Shown here: piece by piece, positions 1-18,223 of the stretch | Layout: every line of letters starts with the position of its first letter | Position numbering within the stretch: position 1 is the first letter of the stretch | Origin: a virus | Taxonomy: Duplodnaviria > Heunggongvirae > Uroviricota > Caudoviricetes | DNA length: 43,864 nucleotides | Direction: 5' to 3' (one strand) | Virus record (IMG/VR): IMGVR_UViG_2698536620_000007 | Position numbers and translations under genes: made by a program | The notes under the pieces: generated by a model | The model's input: the letters and a program-made list of their open reading frames with translations, nothing else | Databases searched by the model: none | Told to the model about the DNA's origin: nothing

Positions 1-140
1 CATTGAGATTTTCTACAATCGTCAGCGTCGTCACTCTCGTCTGGGGAATATCTCCCCGGCAGCCTTCAGGGAAAAATATCATCAGATGGCTGCTTAAAAA
101 AAGAACAAATGGTAGTGTCCGCTATTGCCAGTACACCTCA
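1..140 (+). mobile_element. Right end of an IS3-family insertion sequence (transposase 3' end plus terminal inverted repeat); the element body lies left of the window
   Basis: Frame 2 (2..97) reads IEIFYNRQRRHSRLGNISPAAFREKYHQMAA*, the typical C-terminus of an IS3-family DDE transposase OrfB. The element ends ...CCTCA at 140; its reverse complement TGAGGTGTACTGGCAATAGCGGACAC resembles the IS3 terminal repeat. 1-140 is the exact reverse complement of 43725-43864. Confidence 0.8.
2..97 (+). CDS. IS3-family transposase OrfB, last 31 codons (5' part outside window)
   Basis: Open frame from the window edge to TAA at 95-97 with the conserved FYN..R.HS.LG..SP..F C-terminal motif. Confidence 0.75.
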   Translation: MEIFYNRQRRHSRLGNISPAAFREKYHQMAA

Positions 141-141
141 G

Positions 142-339
142 CTATTACCTTCTTCAGAGAGCCCCCAGCTACTTCCTGTGACTCTCGATGCAGCTGCCGA
201 ACAGCCAGAATCGCTCGCAGAGGACCCGAAAACCCTCAGTATCAGCTGTGAGGTAACGTTCCGGCACGGGACGCTCCGCTTCAATGGCAATGTCAGCGAA
301 AAGCTCCTGACTCTGCTGATACAGGAACTGAAGCGATGA
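142..339 (+). pseudogene. IS66-family orfA (TnpA accessory protein) 3' fragment, truncated by the IS3-family insertion
   Basis: Open frame begins exactly at the IS3 end (the first 10 codons of track ORF 109..339 are IS-derived). It ends with an ATGA overlap onto the IS66 orfB start at 336, the usual IS66 orfA/orfB coupling. Confidence 0.6.
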
Positions 340-659
340 TCCCGTTACCTTCCGGGATCAAAATTTGGCTGGTTGCCGGTATCACCGATATGAGAAATGG
401 CTTCAACGGCCTGGCTGCGAAAGTACAGACGGCGCTGAAAGACGATCCCATGTCCGGCCATGTTTTCATTTTCCGGGGCCGCAGCGGCAGTCAGGTTAAA
501 CTGCTGTGGTCCACCAGTGACGGACTGTGCCTCCTGACCAAACGGCTGGAGCGTGGGCGCTTCGCCTGGCCGTCAGCCCGTGATGGCAAAGTGTTCCTTA
601 CACAGGCGCAGCTGGCGATGCTGCTGGAAGGTATCGACTGGCGACATATAACCAGGTGA
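336..659 (+). CDS. IS66-family Orf2/TnpB protein
   Basis: 107-aa ORF with the IS66 Orf2 signature (IWLVAGITDMRNGFNGLAAKV...DPMSGHVFIFRGRSG..VKLLW...GRFAWP). Confidence 0.85.
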   Translation: MIPLPSGIKIWLVAGITDMRNGFNGLAAKVQTALKDDPMSGHVFIFRGRSGSQVKLLWSTSDGLCLLTKRLERGRFAWPSARDGKVFLTQAQLAMLLEGIDWRHITR

Positions 660-5451: not shown

Positions 5452-5733
5452 GTGAAAAAAAATCTCATTGCATGGGCGTGGTCGAGTGGTCTTATTGAGT
5501 TTGGTTACGTCCTGCCGGAAGGTGCATTGCCGATAGTTGCCGGAAAGCCTGCCACGGTACGGCATGTGATTGAGGTTATGGCGCGTCATGGACGTGATGA
5601 ACAGGAGCAGTTACTGGTTCCGGGGATACCGGAAGCGGTGACGGAGGAAGAAGCCTTTAATGCCATGATTCGGTTCTGCCGTGAGGTTAGACGCCGGGTC
5701 AGTTATCCAAACAGAACGAGGACCAGAGGATGA
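5452..5733 (+). CDS. Hypothetical early protein
   Basis: 93-aa ORF, start overlaps the previous stop. Confidence 0.4.
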   Translation: MKKNLIAWAWSSGLIEFGYVLPEGALPIVAGKPATVRHVIEVMARHGRDEQEQLLVPGIPEAVTEEEAFNAMIRFCREVRRRVSYPNRTRTRG

Positions 5734-6002
5734 GTAAAGTCGTACGCATTATTTTCGAATACAAGGAAGATGTTATCTGCAAAAACTCTGATGGCAGCAC
5801 GCACAGAGGGGTAAGTCTGGATATACGTTCAACCGGAATAAAGAAGAAAGATAATGGACCCGCCATGATTTTTGGGGTGGTTATGCTGGCAGAAAGCAGA
5901 AACTTCGCAGAGTTTGTGGCAATGAAAGCCAGTGCATTCATGAAAGACAGAGGCATGGCTTCCGGGGTTATTAACGGTAATGAATTTAATCAACAGGGGT
6001 AA
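5730..6002 (+). CDS. Hypothetical early protein (paralog 1 of a tandem pair)
   Basis: 90 aa; N-terminus MSKVVRIIFEY and C-terminal A..F..A.F.A.A...G pattern are shared with the next ORF. Confidence 0.45.
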   Translation: MSKVVRIIFEYKEDVICKNSDGSTHRGVSLDIRSTGIKKKDNGPAMIFGVVMLAESRNFAEFVAMKASAFMKDRGMASGVINGNEFNQQG

Positions 6003-6006
6003 TTCC

Positions 6007-6300
6007 ATGAGCAAAGTACGCGTTATTTTTGAATTTAATCATGTTTCGCATGACGAAAAGTTGGCAGGCAATGACTGTGTTGAAGTGCATGAAAAGATTG
6101 GAGTGGATGTGAAAACAGAACGTGATACGGATAACAGGCCGACGTCACTCTGTGACGTTTATGCAAGTATTCTCCAGTATCACAGTCCTGCAATTATTCA
6201 GTTTCTCTCAGCGGAATTTCAGGCATCTGCACAGTCTTTTGGAGCGGATGCCATCATTAAACGCCACCGCGTGCATAAAGCATCAGGCACACTGCAATAA
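6007..6300 (+). CDS. Hypothetical early protein (paralog 2 of a tandem pair)
   Basis: Starts MSKVRVIFEF at the internal ATG of track ORF 5980..6300; similar to the 5730..6002 product. Confidence 0.45.
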   Translation: MSKVRVIFEFNHVSHDEKLAGNDCVEVHEKIGVDVKTERDTDNRPTSLCDVYASILQYHSPAIIQFLSAEFQASAQSFGADAIIKRHRVHKASGTLQ

Positions 6301-6311
6301 GGAAAAACAAA

Positions 6312-6842
6312 ATGGCTAAACGCGTTACAAAATTAAAGGCCGCAGCCGAGGCGGCACCGCAGACCCGGGAAGAAGTCAGCCGTGATATCCGCACCCTGGG
6401 AGATATTCAGCGAGAGGCGCTGCGCCTGGAAACGGCGATGAATGACGAAGTGGCAGAAATCACCGCCCGTTATACGCCGCAGATTGAAAATCTTAAAAAG
6501 CAAATCAAAGTGCTTTTTAAAGGGATTCAGGACTGGTGCAAAACCAACCGTGATGAGCTGACGAACGGCGGCAAAACCAAAACAGCCAATCTGACCACCG
6601 GAACGGTGTCATGGCGGCTGGGAACGCCATCATGCAGCGTCAGCCGTGATGTGGAAGGTGTGATTGAAATGCTGCGCCGTATGGGGCTTGAGCGTTTCAT
6701 CCGCACGAAAGAGGAAGTGAACAAGGAAGCCGTCCTGGCGGAGCCGGATGCTGTGAAAGGCATTGCCGGTATCAAGGTGAATAAAGGCGCTGAAAGTTTT
6801 TATGTCGAGCCTTTTGAACAGGACGCCGGACTGAATAAATAA
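6312..6842 (+). CDS. gam: Gam-like DNA-end-binding host-nuclease inhibitor
   Basis: 176 aa with the Mu Gam family signature (RLETAMNDEVAEIT, CKTNRDELTNGGKTKTANL, SWRLG, FIRTKEEVNKEA). Confidence 0.85.
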   Translation: MAKRVTKLKAAAEAAPQTREEVSRDIRTLGDIQREALRLETAMNDEVAEITARYTPQIENLKKQIKVLFKGIQDWCKTNRDELTNGGKTKTANLTTGTVSWRLGTPSCSVSRDVEGVIEMLRRMGLERFIRTKEEVNKEAVLAEPDAVKGIAGIKVNKGAESFYVEPFEQDAGLNK

Positions 6843-6987: not shown

Positions 6988-7521
6988 ATGATTGATGCAA
7001 AAGTGCTTGAAGGGGTTAAAAACTGGCTGTGTATTTATGGCCGCCTGACCTGCGGTGTACTGGCTGAAAAAATGAATATGCCGCCATCCTCCATGGTTTA
7101 TTTTCTGCGTGATGCGGTTGATGCAGGCGTGCTGACGGAATGTAACGGTTTTTATGATATTCCGCGTCCCCGCCCGGTGCAGCCGGTTCGTCGCAAATGC
7201 AGCCAGGAATCTGCGGCTGATGATGTTCAGTGGTGCGGCTTCAGAAAATCCCTGCCATGGATTGAGGGGCATGATATTCCGTCGATGGCGTGGGAATTTG
7301 CTCAGGGCGTTCTGACCTGTGAAACCGTTTATGTGGTGGCTGAAGTTGATGAGCAGGCCATGAAAGAAGGCGTGCCCCAGTTTGTGATGGCGTATATCGA
7401 CATACGCCTGGGCGTCATTATCTGCGGTTTAAGCGGCTGGAATATCACTGAACATGTTCTGCGCTACCTGATTGTTGACCGGACAGCAGCGCCTGCCGGG
7501 ATATCTGCGGAGGTGGCGTAA
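6988..7521 (+). CDS. Hypothetical early protein
   Basis: 177-aa ORF in the rightward early operon. Confidence 0.45.
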   Translation: MIDAKVLEGVKNWLCIYGRLTCGVLAEKMNMPPSSMVYFLRDAVDAGVLTECNGFYDIPRPRPVQPVRRKCSQESAADDVQWCGFRKSLPWIEGHDIPSMAWEFAQGVLTCETVYVVAEVDEQAMKEGVPQFVMAYIDIRLGVIICGLSGWNITEHVLRYLIVDRTAAPAGISAEVA

Positions 7522-8036
7522 TGTTCTTTAAAACATCAAACCCTTCCGCGCTGGCTGCGTGGCAAAAATACCAGCAGGACTGCCAGAAAGTTAAGGATGA
7601 GGCAAAACGCCTTGAGGCCGTGCTGAATGTTGCGTGCCGGTCGGTATTTGTATCCGGTATCAGTGGATTTTACTTTAAGGGACTGCGTTTTACGGAGGAC
7701 AAATATCCTTTTCATCGCGACTTATGGCGAAAACCGACTGCGTCGAATGGCTGGAGCTGCACACCGCGCACATCACGTATCCCTAAAACCCTGCGTGTTG
7801 CCTCTGATGAACTGAACAGTCTGTGGCGTGAATATTCGCCCGTCACGTATGCCAGAACCGATGCGCTGTTGTTCTGGTTGGGTATTGATTTCTCGGCAAT
7901 CCTGTTTGGCCCTGTGAAGTGGTTCTGCGTTGACGATGTGATTTACCTTCAGTGCGGCGTAAAACCCGCAAAACAGAAAATGACCGAAATACTGTCTGAT
8001 GAGTTTTATGCTGCTGAAAAGCGAGTCAGGGGGTGA
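7521..8036 (+). CDS. Hypothetical early protein
   Basis: 171-aa ORF; stop/start overlap with the neighbour. Confidence 0.45.
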   Translation: MFFKTSNPSALAAWQKYQQDCQKVKDEAKRLEAVLNVACRSVFVSGISGFYFKGLRFTEDKYPFHRDLWRKPTASNGWSCTPRTSRIPKTLRVASDELNSLWREYSPVTYARTDALLFWLGIDFSAILFGPVKWFCVDDVIYLQCGVKPAKQKMTEILSDEFYAAEKRVRG

Positions 8037-8039
8037 TGC

Positions 8040-8591
8040 ATGATGAAATTACAACCCATGGGACTAAAAGGTCGCGCCCCCGCTCATGTCCGTCCGTGGA
8101 CACCTGAAGAAGATGCGCTGCTGATTGCGCTTTATTCATCCACCCCGGTTAAGGATATTGCTGCCAGAATAAAAAGAACTGTCTGGGCTGTATATAACCG
8201 GACTGGTGTATTGCGCAGTTCATACCCGGAGTTACTGAAATATAAACACCCAAGATTTACACCTGATGAAGATAAGTTTATTCGAAAAAATGCCAGAACA
8301 ATGACCTGCCAGCAAATGGGAGAATATCTCGGACGTAATAAAGATTCTGTCAGATGTCGGGCAGGAATGATTGGTGCTGGATTAACAAAGTGCGGAGAGT
8401 TACGCCCCGGCACGCGCATATCTGATGATGATGTACGTCTTATACGTGAGCTGCGTGATTCCGATTACCCACGCCGTCTGTCATTCCGGGAAATTGGCGA
8501 AAAGTTTGGAATATCTGAACATTCTGCTCACGCAGTTTATTACCGTCGCCGGACTGCCGAGGACGCTGTATTACGGGAGTTAACGCCATGA
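8040..8591 (+). CDS. Putative DNA-binding protein with two Myb/SANT-like repeats and a C-terminal HTH
   Basis: WTPEEDALLIALY and FTPDEDKFIRKNA repeat units plus a C-terminal HTH-like LSFREIGEKFGISEHSAHAVYYRR. Confidence 0.45.
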   Translation: MMKLQPMGLKGRAPAHVRPWTPEEDALLIALYSSTPVKDIAARIKRTVWAVYNRTGVLRSSYPELLKYKHPRFTPDEDKFIRKNARTMTCQQMGEYLGRNKDSVRCRAGMIGAGLTKCGELRPGTRISDDDVRLIRELRDSDYPRRLSFREIGEKFGISEHSAHAVYYRRRTAEDAVLRELTP

Positions 8592-8920
8592 TAACGACCT
8601 TATTTGTTGAATCAGATGAACCTCTTGTGTGTGCCGCCGGAATGCCGCTCTGTGGCGGAACGCTGACCGGCGTTTATTTCGGGGATTTGCGCGGTTATCC
8701 CTGGCATTCACTGGATGACGCATTTCCGCCTGATATGGAGGCTGTCGTGCTGATTGTTCAGTATGGTGACCAACAGGAACTGCGCATCGGCCATATGGGG
8801 TATGAAGGCTTTTTTATTGATGAAGAAACCGGAGCCTGCCTTGAAGATGAGGACGGACAGGTGACGCACTGGTGCCATCTTTCGGCCTTGCCGGAATTAC
8901 AGGGGATACATAATGGATGA
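8588..8920 (+). CDS. Hypothetical early protein
   Basis: 110-aa ORF overlapping the previous stop. Confidence 0.4.
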   Translation: MITTLFVESDEPLVCAAGMPLCGGTLTGVYFGDLRGYPWHSLDDAFPPDMEAVVLIVQYGDQQELRIGHMGYEGFFIDEETGACLEDEDGQVTHWCHLSALPELQGIHNG

Positions 8921-9056
8921 GCAAATTGTTGAATGTCCCACCTGTGGAAATGAGGACCCGGAGTATCTGAAAGAGTGCCCACATTGTGGTGAGATAAAAT
9001 GTAACCACTGCGATATGGGCGACGACACTGCATGTATAAATTGTGAGGATGAATAA
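8913..9056 (+). CDS. Small zinc-ribbon protein (four CxxC motifs), not in the ORF track
   Basis: ATG at 8913; 47 aa MDEQIVECPTCGNEDPEYLKECPHCGEIKCNHCDMGDDTACINCEDE; stop overlaps the next start (TAATATG). Confidence 0.45.
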   Translation: MDEQIVECPTCGNEDPEYLKECPHCGEIKCNHCDMGDDTACINCEDE

Positions 9057-9057
9057 T

Positions 9058-9345
9058 ATGGAAAAAGAAATCAAATTTGCGCCTAAATCTATCGACGAAG
9101 AACTGGCTAAAATCGGCATGCTTGAACGTATGCGGGACATTATCGAATATGCGATAAAAGAAAATCTTGCAGCCAGAGAAGCCCTTTTGATAATGGAGCG
9201 GGAGATTAACCTGATTAAGGATGCTGTATCTCTGGATAATAAAATAGCCCGCGAGGAATACGTTCGCCGTAGGCTCGGTGTTGATGGTTCAGCAATTCTT
9301 ACATCTGAACATTATGCAAAAATTTTTAATCTTTTTCAGCGGTAA
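9058..9345 (+). CDS. Hypothetical early protein
   Basis: ATG at 9058 overlapping the upstream stop; 95 aa, predicted helical. Confidence 0.45.
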   Translation: MEKEIKFAPKSIDEELAKIGMLERMRDIIEYAIKENLAAREALLIMEREINLIKDAVSLDNKIAREEYVRRRLGVDGSAILTSEHYAKIFNLFQR

Positions 9346-9565
9346 TCCCCATACAGGCCCGGAGATTGTCGAAATGCCAGTCGGTATTAATATATGAGCC
9401 ATCCTGGATATCTTCTGCATTTTCCGGGGTAGAGTTTTTTTGAGCGAGATTGATAATATGTATTGCCTCCTCACGGGAAATCAGCCCCTTATCGAACAGG
9501 GTTACCATAAGATTTCCAGCCATTGTGAATGCGGCAACATCAAGTGCATTTTTTATATCTGACAT
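9326..9565 (-). CDS. Reverse-oriented small protein inside the early region (moron-like)
   Basis: 79-aa minus-strand ORF, convergent with the 9058..9345 gene; the only minus-strand gene in the early operon. Confidence 0.4.
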   Translation of the reverse strand: MSDIKNALDVAAFTMAGNLMVTLFDKGLISREEAIHIINLAQKNSTPENAEDIQDGSYINTDWHFDNLRACMGITAEKD

Positions 9566-9593: not shown

Positions 9594-9621
9594 GGCGGTG
9601 CGGTAACACCGCCCATTTTTT
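9594..9621 (+). terminator. Intrinsic terminator-like hairpin with T tract
   Basis: GGCGGTG-CGGTAA-CACCGCC followed by CATTTTTTAT, immediately upstream of the gp16/GemA start. Confidence 0.45.
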
Positions 9622-9635
9622 ATGGAGCCACGATA

Positions 9636-10148
9636 ATGAATCGCGCTTCCCTGATTACCTTAATACATGTCGCAAAACGCGATCTACAGCTTGACCATGA
9701 TACCTATACATCCGCGCTGCTGGCAGCCACCGGCAAATCCAGTTGCCGTGATATGTCACCCGGTGAGTTATCCCGCGTGCTGGATGTTTTCAAAAAACGC
9801 GGTTTTAAAGTGCGTCAGAAGCCGGTTAACCGGGCCTTAAAACCGGGTACGGTGACCGCCAAAATTCGCGCCATCTGGAAAGTGATGCACCGGCAGGGAT
9901 TTATCTCTGATGGCGGGGAAACGGCCCTTAACCGCTGGGTGAAATCGCAGACGGCCGCGCAGAACGACGGCGAAGGTGTGGCTAACTGGCAGTGGCTGGA
10001 GCAACAACCCGCGCTGGCCTCTGATGTGCTGGAGCGTCTCAAACGCTGGCACCGCCGCAAAATGCTGGCAGCCCTGGATATGTCGGAACGTGCAGTGATG
10101 AGTTATGAGCGTGTTTGCAGGCTGTATGAAAAATCATTCCCCCGTTAA
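9636..10148 (+). CDS. Mu gp16/GemA-like protein
   Basis: 170 aa at the position of Mu gemA just before the Mor/C-family gene. Confidence 0.65.
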   Translation: MNRASLITLIHVAKRDLQLDHDTYTSALLAATGKSSCRDMSPGELSRVLDVFKKRGFKVRQKPVNRALKPGTVTAKIRAIWKVMHRQGFISDGGETALNRWVKSQTAAQNDGEGVANWQWLEQQPALASDVLERLKRWHRRKMLAALDMSERAVMSYERVCRLYEKSFPR

Positions 10149-10218: not shown

Positions 10219-10641
10219 ATGGCTGAAACACAGATGAGCATGTTTGGTGACAGCGAACAGCTGCACGCGCTGATTGACCGTCTGGATGATATTCCTGATG
10301 ATGAGCTGAAAAAGAACTGGCCCGGCACGCTGCGGGACCTGGTTGATGTGATCAGTGCTGAACTGCACCGTCAGGGGATTGAACCTGCTCAGGCGGGAAT
10401 GCTTGCCCGTAAGGTTGCAGCCGCACAGGCCGGGTACATGGGCGGGCGTGGTTATTATCTCCCGGTCGGTGAATCCCTTTTCACCGAACTGCGCAATAAT
10501 GAAATTTTTTCCCGCTGGAGCCAGGGCGAAAAAATTGAAACCCTGCGCCGCCACTACCAGATGTCAGAGACGCAGATTTACTCCGTTATCCGCAACCAGC
10601 GTCGCCTGCATCAGGAACGCACGCAGCCACGGCTTTTCTGA
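10219..10641 (+). CDS. Mor/C-family transcriptional activator
   Basis: 140 aa with the Mor/C C-terminal pattern (GG..YLP.G......R...IF..W..G......R.Y..S...IY.VIR..RR); good RBS GGAGG. Confidence 0.75.
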   Translation: MAETQMSMFGDSEQLHALIDRLDDIPDDELKKNWPGTLRDLVDVISAELHRQGIEPAQAGMLARKVAAAQAGYMGGRGYYLPVGESLFTELRNNEIFSRWSQGEKIETLRRHYQMSETQIYSVIRNQRRLHQERTQPRLF

Positions 10642-18102: not shown

Positions 18103-18223
18103 CGGTCAGTGGCGGGGGTCGAACCCGCATACATGATCCACCCGGAGGCAGGCACCGACTTTACCAGTTAAGCGTACACTGACCGCCTGTTTATTTTATA
18201 TTCATCCTTTATGCGGAGGCAAT

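Follow-up and report, generated by a model that had tools for sequence, protein, structure and literature searches.

Two genes of the early operon in an Escherichia coli Mu-like prophage: a protein of three Myb/SANT/GcrA-like repeats and an eight-cysteine ortholog of Mu gp13

What do two small genes at positions 8040-9056 of a Mu-like prophage encode, and do they belong among the early genes already described for phage Mu? The window analyzed here is a stretch of 43,864 nucleotides (nt) from a virus of the Caudoviricetes (IMG/VR record IMGVR_UViG_2698536620_000007). Within it, an initial annotation made from the letters alone had singled out a 183-amino-acid (aa) protein and a 47-aa open reading frame (ORF) with four CxxC motifs. 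Both were proposed as DNA-binding candidates, and neither was thought to be a typical Mu early function. Both ORFs were present as described (Table 1). Positions 8040-9056 come from an E. coli Mu-like prophage, specifically from the "semi-essential" accessory region of its long early (Pe) operon, where genes are tightly packed and translationally coupled. The semi-essential genes of Mu, a region discovered decades ago, are described as largely uncharacterised (PMC3820752). Full-text literature searches retrieved no study of function for Mu gp13/E14 or Mu gp9/E8, and none for Myb-like proteins of phages resembling Mu or P2. The "gp13" of PMC12407980 was rejected as the same protein, as it is the JBD30 Gam homolog.

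We consider it likely that this early Mu-like operon encodes a triple-repeat putative DNA binder together with a gp13 ortholog that is predicted to be a two-zinc, protein-binding module. Both genes are already catalogued as families, by a RefSeq name, by PHROGs, and through Mu gp13 and gp9. They are ordinary phage content, and a phage specialist would find no surprise in these results. The points of modest interest are a gp13 family that is under-annotated and has no Pfam model, a misleading family name carried by homologs of the 183-aa protein, and a charge argument that redirects the search for function.

The 47-aa gene and its counterpart in Mu

A tblastn search against phage records matched the 47-aa ORF to Mu positions 7528-7650, with 88% identity over residues 7-47. 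The same search recovered D108, SfMu, Mu-like Yersinia phages, and a Klebsiella phage. In the Mu reference record (NC_000929) the counterpart is Mup13, a 60-aa product described as "gp13; previously called E14" and encoded between gp12 and gp14. Direct BLASTP comparison with Mu gp13 again gave 88% identity (E 2e-27), and both proteins matched phrog_5584 (E 3e-26 for the 47-aa protein; E 1e-43 for Mu gp13). They share eight cysteines, a CDMGDD motif, a place between the gp12 side and gp14, and membership of the early operon. They differ at the N-terminus, where MDEQIV replaces the non-conserved first 19 residues of the Mu protein because the 183-aa gene and a 110-aa gene were inserted upstream. 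By these comparisons, the 47-aa ORF is an ortholog of Mu gp13/E14 and a typical Mu early gene. This overturns the view that neither protein is a typical Mu early function, as the mini-protein sits in gp12-gp13-gp14 synteny and the 183-aa protein shares phrog_323 with Mu gp9/E8.

Is the short ORF nevertheless a by-product of a longer gene on the opposite strand? Two overlapping minus-strand ORFs are longer, at 91 and 108 aa (8758-9033 and 8814-9140), and an old Mu entry (M64097) has a putative ORF, "E-82", on the minus strand across E14. Furthermore, the Prokaryotic Genome Annotation Pipeline (PGAP) does not call the 47-aa ORF in a 100%-identical E. coli genome, which is consistent with its absence from the ORF track available to the initial annotation. 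The pattern of substitution refutes the minus-strand alternative and shows the 47-aa ORF to be protein-coding. Across the 126 nt shared with Mu there are 22 nucleotide differences, 17 of which fall at codon position 3 of the plus frame; by coordinate arithmetic, the same sites occupy position 1 or 2 in both minus-strand frames. The codon changes are 15 synonymous and 5 non-synonymous, and four cysteine codons are swapped between TGT and TGC. In unrelated phages the 47-aa peptide is kept at 42-55% identity with every cysteine retained. The ORF also has a Shine-Dalgarno site and start and stop codons coupled to those of its neighbours. We therefore give the minus-strand alternative practically no credence.

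The coupling proposed in the initial annotation was borne out, with an 8-nt overlap at 8913-8920 on one side and a stop at 9056 followed by an ATG at 9058 on the other. Conservation of the cysteine positions in homologs, which it had named as a check, was also found, as detailed below. The nearest database proteins of 46-47 aa come from Logan assemblies only, and NCBIfam holds no family for either the 47-aa or the 183-aa protein. The identification of this gene as Mu gp13/E14 thus corrects an annotation, since automated annotation drops it in E. coli prophages.

Repeats, relatives and possible role of the 183-aa protein

The AlphaFold2 (AF2) model of the 183-aa protein, built from a 44-sequence alignment, had a predicted local distance difference test (pLDDT) score of 87. 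It contains three three-helix bundles (residues 22-61, 75-110, and 129-169) followed by a helix at 173-181. Alignment of the repeat sub-alignments with hhalign related repeat 1 to repeat 2 with a probability of 98.8% (E 1e-16), repeat 2 to repeat 3 with 93.6% (E 2e-7), and repeat 1 to repeat 3 with 76.7% (E 2e-5). By these scores, the C-terminal helix-turn-helix (HTH) repeats the same unit a third time. The initial description, two W/F-TP-E/D-ED repeats plus a C-terminal HTH, was right about the nature of the C-terminal part but not about its separateness. On the evidence of the alignments and the model, the protein is composed of three mutually homologous Myb/SANT/GcrA-like three-helix HTH repeats.

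The proposed resemblance of these repeats to Myb/SANT units found the fold support that it called for, in the confidence of the model and in a match between the family profile (positions 18-106) and c-Myb R2R3 (E 9e-8). Among the 44 family members, Pfam matches at E<=0.01 were obtained for Myb_DNA-binding in 35 (best E 3.6e-10), for Sigma70_r4 in 32, and for GcrA in 6. RefSeq names the protein itself a "SANT/Myb-like DNA-binding domain-containing protein". The likeness to eukaryotic Myb R2R3 and SANT domains has bounds. Of the three spaced tryptophans only the first is kept, W20 being invariant and position 73 being Phe or Trp, while the second and third core positions are aliphatic (for example the invariant L58, near the third). 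Moreover, this is a bacterial phage protein with a sub-cut-off Pfam score and no other or effector domain. The predicted pI is 9.9 and the charge +12.

Many homologs carry the database name "AsnC family protein". We considered the AsnC/Lrp family and rejected it. The model is all-helical and has no alpha/beta RAM domain, so the name is a misnomer; the HTH_AsnC-type match on repeat 3 is weak (18.8 bits against a cut-off of 27). These homologs are better annotated as triple Myb/SANT/GcrA-like HTH proteins related to Mu gp9/E8.

The relationship to Mu gp9 emerged from PHROGs. The 183-aa protein matches phrog_323, "transcriptional regulator, D5-like", over residues 2-182 (E 5e-53). The same family matches Mu gp9 (E 5e-29) and a "DNA binding protein" of Citrobacter phage Shae_phiSM (E 3e-33). 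Mu gp9 (Mup09, E8, 99 aa) aligns to repeats 2-3 with 27% identity (pairwise E 2e-7). Both proteins are encoded in the semi-essential early region. However, Mu gp9 has two repeats and its gene lies upstream of gam, whereas the protein of the window has three repeats and a C-terminal helix and is encoded between gp12 and gp13. No gp9 ortholog was found upstream of gam in the window, where the genes at 5500-6300 gave no tblastn match to Mu gp6-gp9 at E<=1e-3. The gene at the Mu gp9 position (6007-6297) was compared as a candidate relative of the 183-aa protein, and the two were unrelated.

Members of the 183-aa family come mostly from Salmonella and E. coli; at 90% identity, the cluster that includes the protein comprises 447 sequences found on 998 contigs. 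The three relatives whose genomic context was examined (from Salmonella, Hafnia, and Citrobacter phage Shae_phiSM) all reside in P2-like (Peduoviridae) elements. There they are among the last genes of the early operon, and the gene for the replication endonuclease gpA (Phage_GPA) follows after a few genes at most. In mycobacteriophages, the double-repeat part also aligns, at ~35% identity, with stretches that carry HNH endonuclease or DNA methylase gene annotations, which would fit a DNA-targeting module.

Two further features of these relatives were recorded. In Salmonella P2-like prophages (L006/L007, 4752-5687 and 6001-6564) the triple-Myb gene immediately precedes gpA and is the second gene after one for a Dam-type (MethyltransfD12) methylase; L007 also has a Fic-domain gene two places beyond gpA. 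A 280-aa Salmonella homolog (P0127, source name "DUF4406 domain-containing protein") also has PF14359 and may be a fusion with a neighbouring gene.

For the role of the 183-aa protein we propose the following. This stand-alone, strongly basic protein would bind double-stranded DNA in monomeric form. Like their counterparts in c-Myb R2R3 and in the DNA-binding domain of GcrA, the third helices of its repeats would enter the major groove, so that the three recognition helices could together read an extended asymmetric site in a sequence-specific manner. Its effect would come from occupying the DNA, and it could serve as an early regulator or as an accessory factor for DNA targeting. DNA binding is favoured by the homology and by the basic charge (pI 9.9).

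A more specific role, as a GcrA-like factor that reads DNA methylation (Dam GATC in enterobacteria), contacts RNA polymerase, or does both, is quite unlikely in our estimation. It would account for the GcrA matches in the family (best E 3.7e-7) and for the Dam-type methyltransferase two genes upstream in one P2-like context; GcrA itself is described as a sigma70 cofactor active at methylated promoters (PMC4647560, PMC3667746). The fold of the 183-aa repeats does resemble the N-terminal DNA-binding domain of Caulobacter GcrA (PDB 5yiu). Yet that unit occurs once in GcrA and three times here, the sigma70-binding C-terminal domain of GcrA is missing from the 183-aa protein, and there is no match to PF07750. 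The other contexts of its relatives are also without a methyltransferase. We thus retain the broader proposal of a sequence-specific binder that acts by occupancy.

Cysteines, charge and genomic company of the gp13 family

The cysteines of the 47-aa protein form four CxxC motifs (C8xxC11, C22xxC25, C30xxC33, and C41xxC44). A profile search of 1.84 billion representative proteins returned 121 gp13-family matches at E<=1e-3. Members occur either as stand-alone proteins of 45-70 aa or as the C-terminal module of ~80-316 aa proteins with unrelated N-terminal parts. No variation was seen across 34 diverse aligned members at C22, C25, C30, C33, C41, C44, D34, and G36; at least 90% of them have C8 and C11, and 33 retain all eight cysteines. 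The family pattern is CxxCG-x(8-16)-CPxC-x4-CxxCDMGDD-x2-CxxC followed by an acidic tail. Spacing is fixed between knuckles 2 and 3 (4 residues) and between knuckles 3 and 4 (7 residues), and all length variation falls in the linker between knuckles 1 and 2. In an environmental subfamily of metagenome phages in IMG/VR (L066-L079), 10-15 residues are inserted between these first two knuckles ("..CGAT..R..NKPN.PQGL.ECP.CG..KCCMCDMGDDVEC..").

No dedicated Pfam model exists for gp13. Searches of Pfam gave only generic zinc-ribbon matches, all under the curated cut-offs. PHROGs lists the family as phrog_5584 and, in fused form, as phrog_6418, both of "unknown function". In some Mu-like IMG/VR loci (L022-L025, 3368-4126, + strand) there is no gp12, and gp13 is joined to the upstream protein as the C-terminal portion of a 252-aa product (phrog_6418, E 2e-166), the N-terminal part of which matches phrog_2510 ("unknown function").

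The first half of the mini-protein resembles a zinc ribbon. In common with Zn_Ribbon_1, DZR, Zn_ribbon_LapB, and the DnaJ CxxCxGxG domain, the protein has CPxCG...CPxCG knuckles separated by a variable linker and four CxxC motifs within fewer than 50 residues. In contrast, its second half (KCxxCDMGDDxxCxxC) has no counterpart in those families. The best zinc-ribbon match of the 47-aa protein scored 16.8 bits against a cut-off of 25.7, Zn_Ribbon_1 was found at E<=0.01 in 8 of the 34 members, and the family profile matched zinc ribbons among PDB sequences weakly and over the first half only (best E 0.02). The zinc ribbon named in the initial annotation is hence weakly supported, and for the first two knuckles only: every Pfam score is sub-cut-off and no PDB fold match is significant. 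We regard the mini-protein as an eight-cysteine, probably two-zinc module.

Charge gives a different indication of function. The 47-aa protein has 14 Asp and Glu residues, 2 Lys, and no Arg, for a predicted pI of 4.05 and a net charge of about -12. Acidity extends to the family, with a median pI of 4.4 among 80 members and nearly always acidic residues after the last cysteine. Two Zn(Cys)4 sites would further increase the negative charge. Protein binding, possibly as a nucleic-acid mimic, therefore fits much better than nucleic-acid binding, and the mini-protein is a poor candidate for the DNA-binding role first suggested for it. Zinc binding, protein binding, and any physiological role are inferences, as is DNA binding by the 183-aa protein. 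As an acidic two-zinc module, gp13 would most likely bind a protein partner and not a nucleic acid. Possible partners, in the host or in the phage, are basic proteins and proteins of DNA metabolism, the latter being plausible because of the genomic company that the family keeps.

That company was surveyed in several phage lineages. In Mu-like phages the gp13 gene comes after gam-gp11-gp12. In Klebsiella phage Kpn BU9 a gp13-like gene precedes an annotated exonuclease, a Gp2.5-like single-stranded DNA-binding protein (SSB), and a DNA polymerase. Neighbours in IMG/VR include an Rv2179c-like 3'-5' exonuclease (five loci), an RNase_T exonuclease, an SNF2 helicase, DUF5906 and PriCT primase-associated proteins, AAA_24, and ThyX; the one exception among these contexts is a gp13-like gene that adjoins a Mu-type portal. 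The annotations of the neighbours put the gp13 family among early and DNA-metabolism modules, with no single target emerging from them.

Several results weigh against the combined reading of the two proteins, as a putative DNA binder and a protein-binding zinc module. The 183-aa protein, a putative DNA binder, itself scores under the Pfam gathering cut-offs (19.7 against 24.4 bits for PF00249; 16.5 against 22.9 for PF13921). Its whole-chain model found no Foldseek match in the PDB at E<=0.001, as is expected for repeats arranged like beads on a string. The AF2 model of the mini-protein is moderate (pLDDT 80), with one hairpin (19-21/28-30) around C22-C25. Foldseek matches of this model in the PDB (FYVE, GATA, RING, and PHD) all had E>1 and were not used to assign a fold or a cross-brace topology. 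BLASTP clustering across 31 diverse IMG/VR loci gave heterogeneous neighbours with no partner common to the lineages, and the Rv2179c-like exonuclease recurs in one lineage. Lastly, the N-terminal domain in one class of fusions is a borderline match to Phage_ProQ_C_like (26.6 bits against a cut-off of 27), which could hint at RNA-related roles.

This last domain would suit a nucleic-acid-binding zinc-finger regulator comparable to Mu Com, which binds mom mRNA, or to the P2 Ogr/Delta-type activators. Mu does have a small Cys4-type regulatory zinc protein in Com (PMC6483171), and the first two knuckles of the mini-protein resemble the zinc ribbons of nucleic-acid-associated RadA, L40e, and Rpo12 (E 0.02-1). 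We nonetheless hold such a regulator to be unlikely. The acidity that marks the 47-aa protein and, with its acidic tails, the whole family is at odds with nucleic-acid binding, and no nucleic-acid-binding zinc-finger family was matched significantly. A redox or sensing role, with the eight cysteines holding iron (rubredoxin-like or Fe-S) or forming disulfides, would draw on the CxxC...CxxC pairs that also make up the rubredoxin signature and on weak matches to the rubredoxin-type "Zn_ribbon_LapB", rubrerythrin, and nigerythrin. As these matches are all sub-threshold, as CPxCG knuckles are typical of zinc ribbons, and as gp13-like genes sit among early and DNA-metabolism genes and not among redox genes, we judge it very unlikely. 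The predicted two-zinc module that binds a protein partner is the reading of gp13 that we prefer.

A wider proposal can be put forward only tentatively, and we think it doubtful. Under it, gp13/E14-like Cys8 mini-proteins would be a widespread unnamed class of phage early proteins, acidic two-zinc modules, alone or fused to varied N-terminal domains, that imitate nucleic acid or in some other way bind and inhibit a conserved protein of the host, one of DNA metabolism or of defence (a nuclease, helicase, or gyrase, for example). It draws on the large size of the family, the want of a Pfam model, uniform acidity, the exonuclease, SSB, polymerase, and primase neighbours in unrelated phages, and the nearness to gam in Mu. 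Whatever the partner, the family stands out as short, very acidic, strictly conserved in its eight cysteines, and present in many unrelated phages, which makes it a cheap and well-defined subject for functional screens.

Early-operon setting and the variable slot

A chromosomal prophage of E. coli strain 600029 matches positions 7900-9400 with 100% identity, and regions labelled "inserted Mu-like phage" in two Shiga toxin (Stx) phage records match with ~89%. Used as a 1.5-kb query, this segment had at least a partial match in 232 of 5426 complete E. coli genomes and a match of at least 80% coverage in 14. The RefSeq record of the identical genome shows the surroundings of a Mu-type prophage: repressor, Ner-like HTH protein, MuA-type transposase, MuB-type ATPase, Gam, GemA ("gp16 family"), Mor, lysozyme, and portal. 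The early operon reads Gam-gp11-gp12-[183 aa]-[110 aa]-gp13-gp14-(gp15)-GemA-Mor, with the Mu orthologs Gam, gp11, gp12, gp13, gp14, GemA, and Mor in the order found in Mu (Table 1).

Table 1. Features of the early operon, in window coordinates
Feature	Position	Strand	Evidence and remarks
Gam	6312-6842		Pfam
Gp11 C-terminal domain	6988-7521		Pfam
gp12 ortholog, 171 aa; left flank of the variable slot	7521-8036	+	55% identity to Mu gp12, E 4e-70; phrog_2314
183-aa basic protein; three Myb/SANT/GcrA-like HTH repeats (alignment and model) and C-terminal helix	8040-8591	+	RefSeq WP_000977059.1
Repeat 1, aa 18-61; W20-TPEED; predicted helices 22-31, 37-44, 48-61	8091-8222	+	AF2; hhalign
Repeat 2, aa 71-113; F73-TPDED; predicted helices 75-84, 90-97, 101-110	8250-8378	+	AF2; hhalign; aligns with the first repeat of Mu gp9
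Repeat 3, aa 125-171; I127-SDDD; predicted helices 129-140, 149-156, 160-169	8412-8552	+	hhalign; weak AsnC-type, HTH_10, and Sigma70_r4 Pfam matches
110-aa protein; coupled on both sides; part of the insertion relative to Mu	8588-8920	+	phrog_6925; weak DUF551-like C-terminus
47-aa acidic eight-Cys mini-protein; Mu gp13/E14 ortholog	8913-9056	+	phrog_5584; conserved core residues 7-47 (nt 8931-9053)
gp14 ortholog, 95 aa; right flank	9058-9345	+	49% identity to Mu gp14, E 1e-30; RefSeq start
GemA	9636-10148		Pfam
Mor	10219-10641		Pfam

DNA homology between the window and Mu ends near 7562 and resumes at 8931, inside gp13. By this comparison, the window has the 183-aa and 110-aa genes inserted where gp12 and gp13 adjoin in Mu, and the insertion replaced the non-conserved N-terminus of gp13. 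Three architectures occupy this slot in Mu-like loci: gp12-gp13, gp12-p110-gp13, and gp12-Myb-p110-gp13. The 110-aa gene accordingly occurs in other Mu-like loci both with and without the Myb gene, and we regard the two genes as accessory cassettes in a variable slot, the 183-aa gene being a mobile one. Identity to Mu is uneven along the operon, ranging from 55-68% for Gam, gp11, and gp12 to only ~28% for Mor, which shows strong mosaicism of the early region.

Packing is tight throughout the block. The stop of the gp12-like gene at 8036 is followed by the ATG at 8040, and the 183-aa and 110-aa genes share an ATGA overlap at 8588-8591. A purine-rich Shine-Dalgarno-like site (of the GGAGG, GGGGG, GGGAG, GGGGA, or GAGGA type) precedes every start. 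Scanning of the + strand inside the block for promoters and terminators gave nothing above shuffle expectation. The PADLOC defence models matched none of the six proteins encoded in 7521-9565.

Other features were noted nearby and elsewhere in the window. The first good hairpin-plus-T-run on the + strand, terminator-like in form, lies at 9594-9613, just ahead of gemA. A 79-aa gene on the minus strand (9326-9565; phrog_32893) occupies the Mu gp15 position and has a convergent 20-nt overlap with the 3' end of the gp14-like gene; Mu gp15 itself gave no tblastn match at E<=1e-3. RefSeq/PGAP lists a "tRNA-OTHER" at ~18104-18183 on the minus strand (L002 19205-19284), between the head-morphogenesis and virion-morphogenesis genes of the prophage. 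ARAGORN called no tRNA or tmRNA over the entire window. At the left prophage end of the identical E. coli genome lies an SgrR-family regulator pseudogene without its N-terminus (L002 674-1747; approximately window 1-646), which suggests that the prophage inserted into, and disrupted, sgrR.

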